Virus record (IMG/VR): IMGVR_UViG_2713896781_000012
Origin: a virus
Lineage: Duplodnaviria; Heunggongvirae; Uroviricota; Caudoviricetes
Reading direction: 5' to 3' (one strand)
DNA length: 25,730 nt
The first letter of the stretch is position 1, and every line of letters begins with the position of its first letter. The position numbers and the translations under genes are program-made. A model generated the notes under the pieces. The model did no database searches, was not told where the DNA came from, and saw only the letters and a program-made list of their open reading frames with translations. Below, one piece after another: positions 890 through 10,523 of the stretch.

Positions 890-1972
890 ATGAAAAAATT
901 AACAGTGGCAATTTCTGCTGTAGCTGCATCAGTACTGATGGCGATGTCTGCTCAGGCAGCTGAAATTTATAATAAAGACAGTAACAAGCTGGATCTATAC
1001 GGGAAAGTTAATGCCAAGCACTACTTCTCCTCTAATGATGCAGATGATGGTGATACTACTTATGCCCGTCTTGGCTTCAAAGGTGAAACCCAAATCAACG
1101 ATCAACTGACTGGGTTCGGTCAGTGGGAATATGACTTCAAAGGCAACCGTGCTGAATCTCAAGGTTCTTCCAAAGACAAAACCCGTCTTGCATTTGCAGG
1201 CCTGAAATTTGGTGATTACGGCTCAATCGATTACGGCCGTAACTTCGGTGTAGCATACGACATCGGTGCGTGGACTGACGTCCTGCCAGAATTCGGTGGT
1301 GACACTTGGACTCAAACCGACGTGTTCATGACTCAACGTGCAACTGGTGTTGCAACTTATCGTAACAACGACTTCTTTGGTCTGGTCGATGGCCTGAACT
1401 TTGCTGCTCAGTATCAGGGTAAAAATGACCGCACTGACGTAGCTGAAGCCAATGGTGATGGTTTCGGTTTCTCCACTACTTATGAGTATGAAGGATTCGG
1501 CGTGGGTGCAACCTATGCTAAATCAGATCGCACTGACGGTCAGGTCGCCTATGGTAAGAGCAAATTCAATGCCTCCGGCAAAAATGCGGAAGTATGGGCT
1601 GCAGGCCTGAAATATGATGCGAACAATATCTATCTGGCTACCACATATTCTGAAACTCAGAATATGACCGTTTTTGGTAATAACCATATTGCAAACAAAG
1701 CACAAAACTTTGAAGCAGTAGCACAATATCAGTTTGACTTCGGTCTGCGCCCATCTGTTGCTTACCTTCAGTCAAAAGGTAAAGACCTTGGTGTTCATGG
1801 TGACCGAGACTTAGTCAAGTATGTCGATGTCGGTGCTACTTACTACTTTAATAAAAACATGTCCACTTTTGTTGATTACAAAATCAACTTAATTGACGAT
1901 AGTAAGTTTACCAAAACAGCTGGTATTGATACCGACGACATCGTCGCTGTAGGTCTGGTTTATCAGTTCTAA
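890..1972 (+). CDS. nmpC: Outer-membrane general porin, OmpC/OmpF family (prophage NmpC/Lc type)
   Basis: ATG at 890 preceded by a purine-rich stretch; signal peptide [23 protein letters not shown] then [16 protein letters not shown]; C-terminal ...VGLVYQF typical of porins. The in-frame upstream part of ORF 830..1972 is probably not translated. Confidence 0.9.
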
Positions 1973-1982
1973 TCTGACTTAC

Positions 1983-2023
1983 GAAAAAGATATGTTGCGG
2001 GAGGCTTTGCCTCCGCAACATAT
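1983..2023 (-). terminator. Intrinsic terminator on the minus strand downstream of Q (candidate tR'-like site)
   Basis: Minus strand reads ATATGTTGCGGAGGC-aaa-GCCTCCCGCAACATAT followed by CTTTTT; about 14-bp stem with one bulge. Confidence 0.45.
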
Positions 2024-2108
2024 AAGTGGAGCCCTCAAGCCACTTCCTTTAGAAGCACTACCTTGCTTCTTACTATATAAACCTTCTGTTATATATTACC
2101 CTTTATTT

Positions 2109-2133
2109 GGGGGCGTTTCCACGCCCCATTTTT
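2109..2133 (+). terminator. Intrinsic terminator on the plus strand (porin transcript)
   Basis: GGGGCGT-ttcc-ACGCCCC followed by ATTTTT on the plus strand, 137 bp after the porin stop. Confidence 0.55.
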
Positions 2134-2159
2134 AATAACTTTTAGTAAACAATTGCATA

Positions 2160-2543
2160 TCAATTAGAATTATTAGCAACGATATCCATATCTAACCGGA
2201 TATCTAATGCCATTAACATCCCTTCAATTATGCCCTCAGCCTTCTGTAACCTTTTCCCGATATAACCATCCGAGCAGCAATGCTTACTTGCCAGTGACAT
2301 GAATGTCATACCACATACATAATAATCTACTAATAAATCGTGTAAATCGCTGTTGTTCTTTTTCAGACGGGCCATGCACCCGCAAATGATCATCGCGTCA
2401 TCGTCACAACATTGCGGGCGAGATTTTACTTTTGAAGGAATTAATCCCTTAAAACCGGCAGCAATGGACGACCAGGTCACATCCTCATGATTATTTGCCG
2501 CCCATGCTCCCCAGCGTTCGAGAACCATCTGAATATCACGCAT
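2160..2543 (-). CDS. Late-gene antitermination protein Q (lambdoid Q family)
   Basis: [18 protein letters not shown]... with the WGAW motif and a Cys-rich segment as in phage Q antiterminators. ATG at 2543 with GGAGA 6 nt upstream; the ORF-track start at 2558 is a TTG. Lies between the replication genes and the late region. Confidence 0.75.
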
Positions 2544-3602: not shown

Positions 3603-3860
3603 TCACGCAGTAAACTCCTTCACCAGCGTTTCAAACTGGCTTACCTGTCCTTCCAGTTCCGCCACGCAATCCACCAGCTCATCCACCGCCTTTTGTGTGC
3701 GGTGTTTTGCCTGCAGCAGATCACGAAGCGCCGGAGTAAGCTGCTTGCGGAGCGTATCTTTTTTCACGCTCGTTTTTTCCATCTGTTCAGCACAACGAAG
3801 CATCTCCTGCGCCTGCCGACGAAGTTGTTCCGGTGAAACAGTGATTGTTCTGTTGTTCAA
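3603..3860 (-). CDS. Hypothetical protein, 85 aa, predicted coiled coil
   Basis: ORF starts at a TTG that overlaps the DnaB-like TGA stop (TTGA); same strand and coupling pattern as the replication operon. Confidence 0.45.
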   Translation of the reverse strand: MNNRTITVSPEQLRRQAQEMLRCAEQMEKTSVKKDTLRKQLTPALRDLLQAKHRTQKAVDELVDCVAELEGQVSQFETLVKEFTA

Positions 3861-5257
3861 AATAAACGCTCCGTTTTACTGCCCGACATGCGGTTATTGC
3901 TGTATCTGCGCGGATTGCCCGGCGTCATGGGTGTGGAAAGAACCCGGGCACTCTCCTGGTCCACAGGCAGAAAATGTCCGTTATGAAAACGCCGGTAAAT
4001 GGTCCCGAGTGTGCCATTACGCTGTTTCGTGATGTTGATTTCTGCTATGCCTCTGGCCTGTGTATCCGGGTTATACACCTCATCCCTGTAAAGCATCAGA
4101 ATGATGTCGGCATCAGCCTCTATTTCCCCGGAGTTTTTCAGGTCTGAGTTCATGGGACGTTTATTGGGTCTGGATTCCACGCCTCGGGAGAGCTGGCTCA
4201 GAGCAATCAGCGGGAAACCGCCGGATTTTGCCAGGCTTTTAAGTCCCTTTGAGATTTCCCCCACAGCAAGGTCGTGACGCCCCGTGCTGCGGGTTTTAAT
4301 CAGACCGAGGTAATCGACCACCACCAGCGCCGTTTCCGGGTGTTTCATCCGGTGGTGCTTCGTGGTTGCACATATCTCATCAATGGTCAGGTTTGCCTGA
4401 TCCACCATCCAGATATTACGCCCCGTCATTCGTCCCACGCCCTGCGAGAAACGCGCCCAGTCTTCATCTTCAAAACGGGCAACAGACTTAAGACGGGATA
4501 CCGGCATTCCACCGGCAGCAGACACCATACGTTCACCAATCTGGATGTTCGCCATCTCCATGGTGAACAGAAGCACGCCATGCCCCTGCTCAGTCACCTT
4601 GTCGATGATGTCCAGCGCAAGTTCGGTTTTCCCCATCGAAGGACGGGCGGCAATGAATACCAGGTCACCGGGCTCCATACCGCCCGTTTTTGCGTCCAGT
4701 TCATCAATACCGGTCATCAGCGCCCTGGATTTCTCCAGTCCCTGATTGCGGCATTCAACACGGTCGACCACTTCCGGAAGGACATCATCAATGTGAACCG
4801 GCTGAATGACGCCCTTTCCGGTCGACAGTGAGGCCATCATGTTCTGCACATCCTTCAGGGCATCCTCGGCTGCTTCACAGGTATACGCATCACGTAAATT
4901 CTGTAATGCTTCAGTCAGTGTTTTTTCTGCATCGCGCAGTGCGGCATTGCGCCGCAACGCTGCGACATAGTGCTCCAGTGAAGACTTCACCCAGGTTTTG
5001 CGTCCGGTGTCGGTAATCACCGGGGCAAGTTCCGGCATCTCATTGCACAGCAGTACGGGGTCAATGACGCCGGATATGCGAGCCTGTCTGCAAATCCCCG
5101 CGTAAATATCCCGGTACTGACGCACAAAAAATACATCCGCCGGAAGTGTGGCCAGAATATCCATCACTTCCGGATCGGCCCCACGCAGAAAAAACGCACC
5201 GATGACAGCGCCTTCCAGGTCATCGTTACGCCATGCCGGGGTGTTCTGGCTGGTCAT
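3857..5257 (-). CDS. Replicative DNA helicase, DnaB family
   Basis: 466 aa; Walker A AARPSMGKT and the DnaB-type C-terminal RecA-like domain (DYLGLI, SQLSR). ATG at 5257 overlaps the upstream stop as ATGA. Confidence 0.9.
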   Translation of the reverse strand: MTSQNTPAWRNDDLEGAVIGAFFLRGADPEVMDILATLPADVFFVRQYRDIYAGICRQARISGVIDPVLLCNEMPELAPVITDTGRKTWVKSSLEHYVAALRRNAALRDAEKTLTEALQNLRDAYTCEAAEDALKDVQNMMASLSTGKGVIQPVHIDDVLPEVVDRVECRNQGLEKSRALMTGIDELDAKTGGMEPGDLVFIAARPSMGKTELALDIIDKVTEQGHGVLLFTMEMANIQIGERMVSAAGGMPVSRLKSVARFEDEDWARFSQGVGRMTGRNIWMVDQANLTIDEICATTKHHRMKHPETALVVVDYLGLIKTRSTGRHDLAVGEISKGLKSLAKSGGFPLIALSQLSRGVESRPNKRPMNSDLKNSGEIEADADIILMLYRDEVYNPDTQARGIAEINITKQRNGTLGTIYRRFHNGHFLPVDQESARVLSTPMTPGNPRRYSNNRMSGSKTERLF

Positions 5258-6153
5258 GCGGCAACACCTCCGATACGAGAACGGTAGCTGGGCCAGTTAA
5301 ACGACAACCAGTTGCGCCCGCCATCGGTGATCCTGTCGGCAATCCGGGGACTGATGAACGCCCACAATTCTTCCGGTGAAAGGTTGCTGATCAGGATAGT
5401 TGGCAAAATACCCTCATACCGGGCATTGATAATTTCCTGCAAAATGGCCATTTCAGCCGCACTGCCAAACTGAACGCCGACTTCGTCGACAATCAGCAAA
5501 TCCAGTGACGCATAATGCTCAATGACGTCATCCGCTGTTTTTTCACTGTCATTCCGCCAGCAGTTTTTCACAGCCCGGGTAAGGCGCATCACGTCGGTGA
5601 TCTCCACACTGGCCAGATAGTTACGGATGATGTGTTTTGCCATTGATACCGCCAGATGATTTTTCCCGGTACCGCAACTGCCGGTCATAACAAGACTGGT
5701 ACCGTTCTCCAGCATATCTGGCCAGTTCTCCGCATAGCGGCGACAGGCCGCAAGATTTCTGGCTGCGTCAGGATTAACCTCCAGATAATTATCAAACTCG
5801 CAGTCCCGAAAACGCAGAGCAATTCCGGCGTTATCAGTCAGTTCTTCCGCCTTGAGGGACGACAGTTCCATGGTCAAATCACTGGCCTCAGCGATCAAGC
5901 AGTCAGGGCAGCATGAAATTTTTTCTCTGTCCTCGCCATTACGATCGATCCACACCAGTATATGCGTACGATATTTACCGTGTTTTTCGCAATATCCGCG
6001 ACCTTCACGCATCAGGCAGGAACGATAAGGCCATGGCTTTTCGCCCTTCTGAGCAAATGCAATCTCTGCCCGTAACTCATCCATTTCTGCCCGTAACTCA
6101 TCCATTCGCGCCTGTAGTCTTGTTTGTTTCTCACGTTGGTCAATCGTCATCAT
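5254..6153 (-). CDS. Helicase loader, DnaC/IstB-like AAA+ ATPase
   Basis: Walker A GSCGTGKNHLAVSMA and Walker B LLIVDEVG; Cys-rich N-terminal segment. ORF-track start 6162 is GTG; ATG-ATG at 6153/6150 with GAGGTG upstream is the preferred start. Confidence 0.85.
   Translation of the reverse strand: MMTIDQREKQTRLQARMDELRAEMDELRAEIAFAQKGEKPWPYRSCLMREGRGYCEKHGKYRTHILVWIDRNGEDREKISCCPDCLIAEASDLTMELSSLKAEELTDNAGIALRFRDCEFDNYLEVNPDAARNLAACRRYAENWPDMLENGTSLVMTGSCGTGKNHLAVSMAKHIIRNYLASVEITDVMRLTRAVKNCWRNDSEKTADDVIEHYASLDLLIVDEVGVQFGSAAEMAILQEIINARYEGILPTILISNLSPEELWAFISPRIADRITDGGRNWLSFNWPSYRSRIGGVAA
6066..6107. repeat. 21-bp perfect-to-near-perfect tandem duplication inside the DnaC-like gene
   Basis: CTGCCCGTAACTCATCCATTT followed by CTGCCCGTAACTCATCCATTC; encodes an in-frame MDELRAE-MDELRAE duplication. 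Confidence 0.85.
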
Positions 6154-6163
6154 CGCTGTCACC

Positions 6164-7156
6164 TCAGAATGTCAATTTGTTACTGGATTTACCGAATTTG
6201 TCAGACATGGCTCCCAGGCCAGCCAGGACATCGACCTGTCGCTGTCGCCCACCTCCGTGAGCGGCTGGCTGTTGCCAGTAATCTTCGAAGTGACGATCGG
6301 GTCCAAAGAACGTCGCAGCCTGCTTCACGAACTGTGTGCCGGTATTTCCTGTAGCACGTACCCAGGCGGCATACCGCTTCACGCCATCAAGCATGGTCTC
6401 CGGTTTTATTCCCTCCCTGATACGGGCTTTCCAGGCTTTGAAGGCTGCTGACTTGGAATTGCCACCAGCACGTTTGGGATATTCCTGCCAGGCCTGTTCA
6501 AATTCCGGTGAATATTCCTGTCGGGCAGAACGCGCTGGCGCAGACGCGTCAGCGGATGCATCAATAGTGTTTTTAGTCTCCGTTGTAATCTCTGTAGTAA
6601 TCTCTGTATTTGTATCAACATTCGGCGTATCCCCTGTTCCGTTATGACGTCGGGGGGTGTTCCGTTTTAACGTAATAGCTGTATCGCTGATTGCATTATT
6701 GCTGTTACTTTCTGGCGAAACAGAAGAAGGTGTGGTGATGGCCGCAATTGCCTGTGGGTTGATCCCGACAAACAAAATATTGCTGCATTTCACCCCATCG
6801 AGCATTTCCACCGTGCGTAAATCCAGAGTAATAAACCCTGCATCGCGCAGACGCTTCAGCGCATCTGCGGTTTCCCTTTTCCCGAAACCAAACTGCTCAG
6901 CAAACGCCTGGTAGCTTCTTTGCAGTTTGTCGCCCTGAAAACGCTTGCGATATCCCAGCAACGCTCCGGTGTGCTCATCCCTGACCTCTGTCGGGCGGTA
7001 CCAGTAAACGATCTCTGAAAGCAGAGCGATAGCCGTCGCATCCGGACGCCCACTGGGTAGTCGAATATATTTCCACCAGTTCGCAGGTGTAACATTGCCG
7101 GAAATATTAATTTGACCAATAGCCATAACTTCCGGTGTGGGGGCGTAACGGCTCAT
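6164..7156 (-). CDS. Putative phage replication initiation protein (O-like replisome organiser)
   Basis: 330 aa, immediately upstream of and overlapping the DnaC/DnaB homologues. ATG at 7156 with GGAAGGAGG RBS. Central low-complexity linker (TEITTEITTE) containing DNA repeats. Family assignment is by position and architecture, not verified. Confidence 0.55.
   Translation of the reverse strand: MSRYAPTPEVMAIGQINISGNVTPANWWKYIRLPSGRPDATAIALLSEIVYWYRPTEVRDEHTGALLGYRKRFQGDKLQRSYQAFAEQFGFGKRETADALKRLRDAGFITLDLRTVEMLDGVKCSNILFVGINPQAIAAITTPSSVSPESNSNNAISDTAITLKRNTPRRHNGTGDTPNVDTNTEITTEITTETKNTIDASADASAPARSARQEYSPEFEQAWQEYPKRAGGNSKSAAFKAWKARIREGIKPETMLDGVKRYAAWVRATGNTGTQFVKQAATFFGPDRHFEDYWQQPAAHGGGRQRQVDVLAGLGAMSDKFGKSSNKLTF
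6585..6672. repeat. Iteron-like direct repeats inside the initiator gene (candidate replication origin)
   Basis: GTAATCTCTGTA x2 in tandem (6585-6608) and TGTTCCGTTATGACG / TGTTCCGTTTTAACG (6635-6649, 6658-6672), followed by an AT-richer stretch. Confidence 0.4.
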
Positions 7157-7452
7157 ACAACCTCCTTCCGCGGCATGAGAATTGTGTAGCCACGCGCAGG
7201 TTGTAGTCTGGCTTTTGCATCAATAGTAAGCGTTGCAATTTTTCGGATATGAAGATAACCAGCTCTTTCCAGTGCCAGGGTTTCCCTGAATATCGCTTGC
7301 TTAGAACAACAGCAGAAATCAGCAAGCACCTGATGATCAATAACTCTCTCGCCTTCACCGTCTGAAGAACCCGACATCAAAACACGCAACATAATCAGGC
7401 GCTGAATCGGGTTATCGAAAGCACATCCGCACACAAACTGAAAACAGTTCAC
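7153..7452 (-). CDS. Hypothetical protein, 99 aa
   Basis: GTG start at 7452 overlapping the upstream stop (GTGA), GGGAGG 6 nt upstream; its stop overlaps the O-like ATG (ATGA). Confidence 0.5.
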   Translation of the reverse strand: MNCFQFVCGCAFDNPIQRLIMLRVLMSGSSDGEGERVIDHQVLADFCCCSKQAIFRETLALERAGYLHIRKIATLTIDAKARLQPARGYTILMPRKEVV

Positions 7453-9755: not shown

Positions 9756-9866
9756 TCTTTAGTCTCACGCCAGATACTTTGTTATCCAACGATGTTAACC
9801 ACAGGAACCCAAAGTATCAAGAAATTCTGTTACTTTAGTATCAACAGCCATGAGAGGAGAAGAAAA
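9756..9866. promoter_or_regulatory. Divergent promoter/operator region between the Cro-like and cI-like genes (OR-like)
   Basis: Three related sites: ATACTTTGTTATCCAAC (9774-9790), CCAAAGTATCAAG (9809-9821), TTACTTTAGTATCAAC (9831-9846), sharing GTATCAA/ACTTT half-sites. Confidence 0.5.
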
Positions 9867-10523
9867 ATGAAGTCTTTAGGTGAACGTCTCATCAACGCAC
9901 GGCAAAAAGCTGGGTTAACACAAGATGCGTTGGCTAAAAAAGCTGGGGTCACCAGAGTTGCAATAAGTAAAGCCGAGCAAGGCCTTACAAAAAGTTTCAA
10001 CGGTGACACCCTTTTTAAAGTTGCAGCTGCACTGCGGTGTTCACCGCAGTGGCTTCAGAACGGAGATGAAAAAGATAAGCATTGGGAAAATAATGTTAAG
10101 AGCTGCCCACAGAGAGACACAGCACACTCTTACCCTGTAATTAACTGGGTTCAGGCAGGATTATTCGCAACTTCTGGTGATGACTACAACATGTATGATC
10201 AGGATAATTGGAGGCATTCTGTAAAATACGCTGGTGAGAGGGGGTTCTGGCTGGAAGTGCACGGAGACTCAATGACTTCGCCCGTAGGAATAACATTTCC
10301 TGAAGGAATGTCGATCCTTGTCAACCCAGATAAAGAAGTTTTTTCAGGGTGTTACGTCATCGCCAGAAAAAAATCTACCAATGAAGCAACATTCAAAAAA
10401 TATATTTCTGACATGGGAAAGGCGTTTCTAAAGCCCCTTAATCCACAATATCCAATCATAGAAATGGACAATGATTGCGAAATAGTAGGTGTTGTGGTTG
10501 ATGCCAGGTGGGATATTTTCTGA
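9867..10523 (+). CDS. Prophage repressor, cI/LexA-like (HTH-XRE plus S24 peptidase domain)
   Basis: ATG at 9867 with GAGAGGAGAAG RBS (ORF-track start 9792 is upstream and in frame). N-terminal HTH (LTQDALAKKAGVTRVAISKAEQG); C-terminal S24 signature HGDSM...ARKKS and a QAG putative autocleavage site. Confidence 0.85.
   Translation: MKSLGERLINARQKAGLTQDALAKKAGVTRVAISKAEQGLTKSFNGDTLFKVAAALRCSPQWLQNGDEKDKHWENNVKSCPQRDTAHSYPVINWVQAGLFATSGDDYNMYDQDNWRHSVKYAGERGFWLEVHGDSMTSPVGITFPEGMSILVNPDKEVFSGCYVIARKKSTNEATFKKYISDMGKAFLKPLNPQYPIIEMDNDCEIVGVVVDARWDIF

Follow-up and report, generated by a model that had tools for sequence, protein, structure and literature searches.

Positions 6539-6676 of the virus record IMGVR_UViG_2713896781_000012, a 25,730-nucleotide stretch of Caudoviricetes DNA (referred to as the window), probably constitute a prophage replication origin that lies inside a replication initiator gene and combines iterons with a conserved unwinding element. 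The gene (6164..7156, minus strand, open reading frame and translation) encodes a 330-amino-acid protein with a winged-helix N-domain, a disordered linker and a C-terminal domain. Two distinct classes of repeat are found in its linker part: a lineage-specific array of dyad-symmetric units, which are the iterons, and separate, near-invariant 12-mers, which themselves form the AT-rich stretch. This layout, with dyads at a period of about two helical turns, an AT-rich array at a fixed distance from them and dispensable linker DNA, points to an iteron origin within the initiator gene. Origins placed in this way are a known kind; a tandem 12-mer that is conserved in sequence across phyla and across N-domain families appears to be new.

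The gene direction is that of the minus strand, and coordinates fall along the coding strand. An earlier note on this DNA had reported a perfect 12-bp tandem at 6585-6608 and two copies of TGTTCCGTT placed 23 bp apart at 6635-6672, all within the initiator linker. Both observations were confirmed. On the plus strand, GTAATCTCTGTA occurs twice in perfect tandem (6585-6596 and 6597-6608), Tandem Repeats Finder returned 6577-6608 with a period of 12 and 2.7 copies, and translation of the 12-mers in the initiator open reading frame gives TEITTEITTE, as had been stated. The other pair stands at 6635-6650 (TGTTCCGTTATGACGT) and 6658-6673 (TGTTCCGTTTTAACGT), 23 bp from start to start, and corresponds to units 1 and 2 of a set of three dyad units with a 22-23 bp period, each bearing the inner dyad CGTyAwAACG and the third being degenerate; for the window itself, 23 bp was the best-scoring period. 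Unit 1 (TACGTTAAAACGGAACACCCCC, 6653..6674, minus strand), with the inner dyad CGTT-AA-AACG, can be aligned with the TACGTTGAAACGnAAC units of Yersinia, Serratia and Xenorhabdus. Unit 2 (CGACGTCATAACGGAACAGGGGA, 6630..6652, minus strand) follows at a 23-bp spacing that is not a multiple of three and is read as RRHNGTG where unit 1 is read as ITLKRNT; since the two lie in different frames, it is the DNA that is repeated and not the peptide. Unit 3 (degenerate TACGCCGAATGTTGATACAA, 6610..6629, minus strand) abuts the conserved motif as its counterparts do in relatives, and by-eye alignment to the last unit of loci L014/L009 matched 14/20 positions, which leaves it the weakest-supported of the parts.

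Directly beyond unit 3, the coding strand reads ATACAGAGATTAC-TACAGAGATTAC-AACGGAGACTAA (through 6573), followed by an A-rich tail and then a GC-rich palindrome (CGCAGACGCGT/ACGCGTCAGCG, 6539..6554) that borders the AT-rich element. The 12-mer array itself (6573..6608, minus strand, Tandem Repeats Finder) comprises TACAGAGATTAC, TACAGAGATTAC and the degenerate AACGGAGACTAA. It falls within a local AT-rich minimum at 6560..6619, A-rich on the coding strand and with a GC content of 31.7%, which is proposed as the DNA unwinding element. The earlier note had instead placed the AT-richer sequence past 6672, where the GC content is ~38-42%; the deepest trough covers the 12-mers and lies gene-downstream of the iterons. 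The order in gene direction is thus iterons, AT-rich 12-mers and GC palindrome, the whole set between the coding parts for the N- and C-domains. By position, the palindrome presumably matches the one to the right of the lambda AT-rich region.

When the gene was shuffled with its dinucleotide composition kept, just 2/1000 shuffles produced a 14/16 repeat spaced at 12-40 bp, and the real gene has two independent ones. Across the whole 25.7-kb window only five families of close direct repeats were detected, the iteron pair among them, and no rival iteron cluster was found elsewhere in it. A conserved 32-nt motif at 6584-6615 reached a profile score of 50.9 bits in a scan of the window, as compared with 2.9 bits for the next best unrelated site, and 51.1 bits in the comparison of homologous genes. 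Matches to the DnaA-box pattern TTWTNCACA occur at 5564 and 20005 only, with none within 6164-7156, and two per window do not exceed the chance level. No promoter-like site was found at the motif or the repeats, and an Rfam search of 6000-7400 returned nothing credible.

The key evidence for the two repeat classes comes from distant relatives, which were collected by N-domain homology only through a profile search covering one genome per species. This search reached 345 species, from which 80 loci were kept, with representatives of Enterobacterales, Acinetobacter, Rickettsiales, Bacillota, Cyanobacteria, Chloroflexota, Atribacterota and other groups, with protein identities of 31-61%. In the 170 nt upstream of the motif, the best self-period was 22 or 23 bp in all but ~6 of the 51 loci examined. 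The dyad-symmetric units that recur at this period differ by lineage, as illustrated by GTTACGTTGAAACGTAAtAGGG x4 in Xenorhabdus, TACAAAAyTTTGTA x5 in Lachnospiraceae and CCACAGGGAACCATATCCTTCC x3.5 in Rickettsiaceae. Directly past the last iteron, on the coding strand, the near-invariant motif AGACAAATACAGAGAWTACTACAGAGAWTAC is present in 72/76 homologous genes. The strict 11-mer ACAGAGAWTAC occurs 58 times inside the genes and is absent from ~750 kb of flanks searched on both strands. The 12-mer consensus is ACArAGAwTACn, in two to six tandem units, and in 39 relatives the GC content lies 5-9% over the gene mean at the iterons and 11% under it at the motif. A mean pairwise motif identity of 0.84 is inflated, the sequences having been picked with the motif pattern; the 72/76 and 11-mer counts are the unbiased measures. 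The window initiator belongs to the group defined here, that of winged-helix initiators carrying an iteron and 12-mer cassette (phrog_270 and phrog_428 types): it has the IVYWYRP N-domain by alignment and in the AlphaFold2 model, dyad repeats at 22-23 bp, and the motif after the last repeat.

Codon analysis of 55 distinct motif sequences revealed that the nucleotides, and not the amino acids, are held constant. At the two Glu/Lys positions of the motif, 90/91 codons are GAG or AAG, while the rest of the same genes use GAA at 63% and AAA at 65%. One Thr codon is ACA in 51/52 cases (background 39%), a second Thr codon is ACT in 35/48 (background 19%), and one codon keeps the form A-n-T though it may encode N, I or T. 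Nucleotide variation recurs at intervals of four (ACAr AGAw TACn), which corresponds to codon positions 1, 2 and 3 in turn and is the opposite of what a protein-level constraint would give. In addition, 6/58 strict 11-mer matches lie in another reading frame. Fixed third positions with changing amino acids, the use of other frames and a non-coding copy on the plasmid pBSG3 together argue for selection on the nucleotide sequence and not on the peptide. The same observations bear on the idea that the repeats arose by slippage within a Thr/Glu-rich linker of low complexity and are kept by protein-level selection or by none. The variation of 12-mer copy number in E. coli prophages and the disorder of the linker would suit this idea; fixed third positions, other frames and the non-coding copy contradict it, and together with an iteron 2 out of frame with iteron 1 they make it extremely unlikely.

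When viral contigs were scanned with a 23-nt core of the motif, at least 120 stretches were obtained, 80 of which were read. In nearly all of these 80, the motif lies mid-gene in open reading frames of 260-390 amino acids, a few of the frames being shorter or cut by the contig end, and it occurs only on the coding strand in a fixed orientation. Their N-domains belong to more than one family: 31 are of the IVYWYRP kind, 43 are of another winged-helix kind (phrog_428, with a C-terminal Pfam Phg_2220_C), and others are represented by single examples. Nucleotide searches with blastn placed the motif in the initiator genes of the Bacillus phages BceA1, phIS3501 and PM1, the S. aureus phages 37 and phiMR11, and many Acinetobacter and Klebsiella phages, with further motif-bearing initiators in Pantoea, Vibrio, Pseudomonas, Burkholderia DC1, E. 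coli mEp460 and Stx phages. Plasmids of Bacillus, Nostoc, Vagococcus, Clostridium and others carry the motif as well. Among these, the Bacillus plasmid pBSG3 (L210, NC_014104.1, ~735-845) carries CCTACAGGGAAA x3 at 22-23 bp, followed by three 12-mers (TTACAGAGATTACTACAGAGATTACTACAGAGATTG), in non-coding DNA with no initiator gene nearby. pBSG3, a rolling-circle plasmid of 8.4 kb, has a Rep_1-type Rep of its own, and its cassette shares 79% identity over 123 bp with the mid-gene region of the Bacillus phage PM1 initiator. Possibly, this cassette is a phage origin that the plasmid has captured and that serves as a decoy or hitch-hiker.

Close relatives show how the cassette is divided between modules. 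The whole initiator gene is present in 220 E. coli genomes and is 100% identical in the E. coli SCU-105 prophage. The iterons of the E. coli copies are near-invariant, with one substitution (G to A) in 2/7 aligned copies, and the number of perfect 12-mer units is two or three among E. coli prophages; a 6-bp indel directly beside the GC-rich palindrome is seen in some copies, R14 and S6 being without GCGCCA. Megablast comparison with phages matched the C-terminal half only. The match to Stx phages reaches 6607, with the 12-mers included and the iterons left out, and that to phiP27 reaches ~6566 and ends just past the 12-mers. The Stx1_14040 'O' protein differs in its winged-helix N-domain and has iterons resembling those of lambda (TCCCGAAATGGGGA and similar), followed by four 12-mers and the same C-domain. 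The phiP27 protein L17 (L208, locus 1501-2427, minus strand) combines a third, helix-turn-helix kind of N-domain with the same C-domain, and its repeats are dyads of the TCAGAATCTGA type and two copies of AAAACATGATCCGCAAG spaced 24 bp apart, with no 12-mers. Homology thus breaks between iterons and 12-mers in Stx phages and just after the 12-mers in phiP27, and these break points indicate that the N-domain and the iterons move as one module with the 12-mers at the joint.

Other differences among these relatives were observed as well. phiP27 looks like another origin design fused to the same loader-recruiting module. In E. coli PU-1 and AF6 (L006 and L007), the same initiator has three perfect 12-mers and a different extreme C-terminus, and it is followed by PerC/yfdN-like and methyltransferase genes in place of the DnaC-like and DnaB-like genes, a gene order which suggests that the origin module can do, or could once do, without a loader and helicase encoded by the phage. 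In E. coli S6 (L003), an extra T in a T-run at the window-equivalent positions ~6770-6778, at the end of the N-domain part, causes a frameshift, and the gene is annotated as a pseudogene.

The architecture of the encoded protein places all of the repeats between its two folded parts. The coding part for the N-terminal winged-helix domain (amino acids 1-141, 6734..7156, minus strand), with the invariant IVYWYRP motif, was modelled by AlphaFold2 at a predicted local distance difference test (pLDDT) score >90, and Foldseek matched the model to generic winged-helix folds only (TFE/TFIIE, MarR and the DnaD N-domain 2v79). The disordered linker (amino acids 146-214, 6515..6721, minus strand; pLDDT <50 at 146-158 and 166-214) holds all the repeats, which fall at amino acids 161-196. 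The C-terminal domain (amino acids 215-330, 6164..6514, minus strand) is helical in the model and was assigned by PHROG as a DnaD-like helicase loader or primosomal protein; its DNA is 92-99% identical to that of phiP27 and Stx-phage initiators having other N-domains.

The best family for the whole protein is phrog_270, 'replication initiation protein' (E = 4.6e-78). The earlier note had called the gene 'O-like', a label which stands for the architecture only: no Pfam family was matched at E <= 0.01, Phage_rep_O and RepA_N (PF06970) included, nor any NCBIfam model, the PHROG matches to 'O-like' families are weak (phrog_391 at 6e-7 and phrog_678 at 8e-5), and the lambda AT-rich tract does not match the 12-mer profile. 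A sequence search of the PDB with the initiator gave nothing significant. The core idea of that note, a lambda-type origin embedded in the gene, is strongly backed by the comparison of relatives, but its two repeat classes are not equivalent iterons. Its interpretation is thus partly supported, being right in essence and wrong in three details.

How such an origin might operate can be outlined from the layout. The N-terminal winged-helix domain would bind, probably as dimers, the two to three dyad iterons spaced at 22-23 bp (6610-6674), and the nucleoprotein complex would strain the adjoining AT-rich 12-mers (6573-6608), whereupon the array would melt and the initiator may hold one of the strands. 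The C-terminal domain would then recruit the DnaC-like loader and DnaB-like helicase of the phage, whose genes lie immediately downstream, and early-operon transcription on the minus strand would cross the site, as it does in lambda. It is from the DNA sequence and its comparison that we infer the binding, melting, helicase loading and origin activity of 6539-6676. Several points weigh against this reading. A mapped origin with the 12-mer motif was not found in the literature for any member of the family, and the window has two good iterons and one degenerate one where lambda and Stx phages have four to six. An unwinding element rarely needs a near-invariant sequence across phyla, and the 12-mers may consequently do more than melt, or do something else. 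phiP27 has the C-domain without the 12-mers, and the motif is hence not required by that loader system. The correspondence between recognition-helix sequence and iteron type, which might have linked the N-domain to its sites, is suggestive but confounded by phylogeny and was not used as evidence.

A more far-reaching proposal, which we put forward tentatively and regard as rather doubtful, is that the 12-mer array is an undescribed sequence-specific element for origin opening or helicase entry, shared by an entire superfamily of winged-helix phage and plasmid initiators of many phyla. Such an element would be portable, and would be a counterpart of the DnaA-trios that works without an AAA+ domain and is read by a conserved surface of the initiator, perhaps as single-stranded DNA. 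The bare cassette of pBSG3 suggests in addition that plasmids could hijack a phage initiator in trans or act as a decoy for it.

Other explanations assign the repeats different tasks. If the roles were reversed, the 12-mers would be the primary sites of the conserved part of the initiator, bound by head-to-tail monomers at one per turn, and the dyads would be dimer-binding sites with an auxiliary or autoregulatory function, like the inverted-repeat operators of iteron plasmids. A conserved domain facing a conserved DNA sequence is the pattern of DnaA and the DnaA box, a YACR core is shared between the 12-mer (TACA) and the iterons (TACG, TACA, CACA or CACG), and the number of 12-mer units (two to six) is similar to that of the iterons. 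The motif, however, occurs with at least two different N-domain families, its AT-rich trough beside GC-enriched iterons is the usual arrangement of an unwinding element beside binding sites, and the dyads at 22-23 bp resemble the initiator sites of lambda, pSK41 (PMC5703833) and pUSA03, which together render the exchange of roles unlikely. Even less probable is that the cassette is an operator or another regulatory site, at which the initiator or a different protein would control expression, or an mRNA element, and that replication starts elsewhere in the prophage. The fixed orientation of the motif on the coding strand is compatible with a function at the RNA level, and part of the prophage lies outside the window; yet neither a promoter-like site at the motif nor an Rfam match was found, the pBSG3 cassette is non-coding and away from any initiator gene, and iterons beside an AT-rich stretch are the canonical layout of an origin.

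The exact flanking of the 12-mers by mosaic break points, together with the joining of three N-domain modules to one C-domain, raises the question of whether the 12-mers are kept mainly as a recombination joint, at which N-domain and iteron modules are swapped against C-terminal loader modules. Near-identity across Proteobacteria, Bacillota, Cyanobacteria, Rickettsiales and others, whose N-domains are only 35-55% identical, is hard to explain in this way, phiP27 has the same C-domain without the 12-mers, and it is more likely that phages exchange modules at the 12-mers because these are conserved than that the exchange keeps them conserved; we consider a joint as the main function to be very improbable. 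An origin composed of iterons and a conserved unwinding element is the reading preferred for 6539-6676.

Comparison with known replicons places this candidate origin among several related designs. The lambda origin lies in the middle of gene O, two of its iterons plus the AT-rich tract suffice for unwinding, and the O protein binds AT-rich single strands (PMC7466680). Shared with the lambda origin and its Stx variants are a mid-gene position between a DNA-binding N-domain and a loader-recruiting C-domain, dyad iterons at ~20-24 bp spacing, an AT-rich tract directly gene-downstream and early-operon transcription through the origin (PMC7466680). There are also differences: the window initiator has no Phage_rep_O Pfam match, its iterons number two to three instead of four to six, its AT-rich part is a sequence-conserved tandem array of 12-mers, and its partners are DnaC-like and DnaB-like proteins where lambda uses P and the host DnaB. 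Set against the lambda-family pattern of at least four iterons of ~18 bp with an AT-rich tract, the window offers two clear iterons and a degenerate one before its GC trough. Whether the lambda AT-rich tract could be read as diverged 12-mers was also considered; the best score was -8.7 bits, a value reached by 8.7% of shuffles, and this candidate was rejected as unsupported, although the top matches do fall in the tract. A paper on Eru and the replication modules of Stx phages does not discuss origins.

Theta plasmids of the RepA_N type offer another parallel. In pSK41, the Rep boxes lie centrally in the rep gene, the linker is dispensable, the C-domain is host-specific, and the N-domain and origin form exchangeable modules (PMC5703833). 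RepA_N plasmids (pSK41 and pAD1) share with the window a winged-helix N-domain that binds, or in the window would bind, repeats central in its own gene and a host- or partner-specific C-domain (PMC5703833), but the window initiator gives no RepA_N Pfam match and the architecture alone is common. The hybrid rep gene of pUSA03 (L212, 101-1060; pPR9/pUSA03 type) contains four GTGTCAAAAGGACAC dyads that recur every 22-23 bp, and AT-rich tandem repeats come after them. These repeats are 15-mers (GATACTGATTTTATT, ~2.5 copies, encoding DTDFIDTDFIDTE) and not the canonical 12-mer, so that pUSA03, which has the same layout, was rejected as support for the 12-mer family and serves as an analogue only.

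Short repeated elements adjacent to initiator sites are known from bacterial replicons as well. DnaA-trios consist of a short periodic motif that is conserved across bacteria, keeps a fixed distance to the final initiator box and is read by an AAA+ domain. The 12-mer is likewise periodic (with a sub-period of four, ACAr AGAw TACn), located at a fixed distance from the last iteron and conserved, while the window initiator differs in being without an AAA+ domain. The unwinding elements of oriC and RK2 are repeated 13-mers whose sequence matters, and initiators hold the single strands (PMC5043065, which also mentions the DnaA-trios). Common to oriC, RK2 oriV and the window are short AT-rich direct repeats beside initiator sites, and in the 13-mer systems both number and arrangement matter (PMC5043065); the 13-mers, however, vary between replicons and are not interchangeable, whereas the 12-mer is near-identical across phyla and with at least two N-domain families. 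Full-text literature searches with the 12-mer motif in either orientation and with the encoded peptides TEITTEITTE and TNTENTTE gave nothing relevant, and a description of the motif was not found in topic literature searches, most subscription journals being outside their coverage.

If confirmed, these findings would locate the origin for a large class of prophages that has so far gone uncharacterised, among them relatives of Stx phages as well as phages that infect Acinetobacter, Klebsiella, Staphylococcus and Bacillus, and would make a 30-bp motif a simple origin signature for thousands of phage and plasmid genomes. The position of the cassette would also explain how origin specificity, carried by the N-domain and the iterons, is exchanged independently of the helicase-loading module. 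Near-invariance from E. coli to cyanobacteria would imply some conserved reader, which sets a mechanistic question, and the bare cassette on a rolling-circle plasmid would hint at natural origin piracy or decoys.

The window represents the early region of an E. coli lambdoid prophage, with a LexA-type cI-like repressor at 9792-10523 (plus strand) and the prophage integrase at 16194-17507. The minus-strand genes are ordered, from 5' to 3', as two Rha-type regulators, the second of which also has an Ash domain, three small open reading frames, the initiator, the DnaC-like and DnaB-like genes, DUF968 and the Q antiterminator. The DnaC-like helicase loader gene (5254..6162, minus strand) was identified by Pfam IstB_IS21 and Bac_DnaA and by phrog_50, with NCBIfam DnaC below its cut-off, and the DnaB-like replicative helicase gene (3857..5257, minus strand) by Pfam DnaB_C (E = 9.8e-74) and a DnaB N-domain. 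In the N-terminal part of the DnaC-like gene, a perfect 21-bp tandem duplication (TCTGCCCGTAACTCATCCATT x2, 6065-6106) encodes MDELRAE twice. This duplication differs among prophages: two copies are present in the window and in L001-L003 (900-bp coding sequence), and a single copy in L004, L005 and phiP27 (879-bp coding sequence in L004/L005).

On the other side of the initiator, a 99-amino-acid open reading frame (7153-7452, minus strand) has a 4-bp overlap with the initiator start and is absent from the relative L005. Its match to phrog_4617, 'replication initiation protein' (E = 2e-29), is confined to the N-terminal part of that family, and it gave no Pfam match. Past the integrase, the window contains a gene for an NleG-type effector (18358-19008), one of the IpaB/EvcA family (20515-21105) and part of a tail-tip J protein gene (24703-25560), and these indicate that it extends into a second prophage or an effector island. 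At the opposite end of the window, past the Q antiterminator, a porin gene is located at 830-1972.

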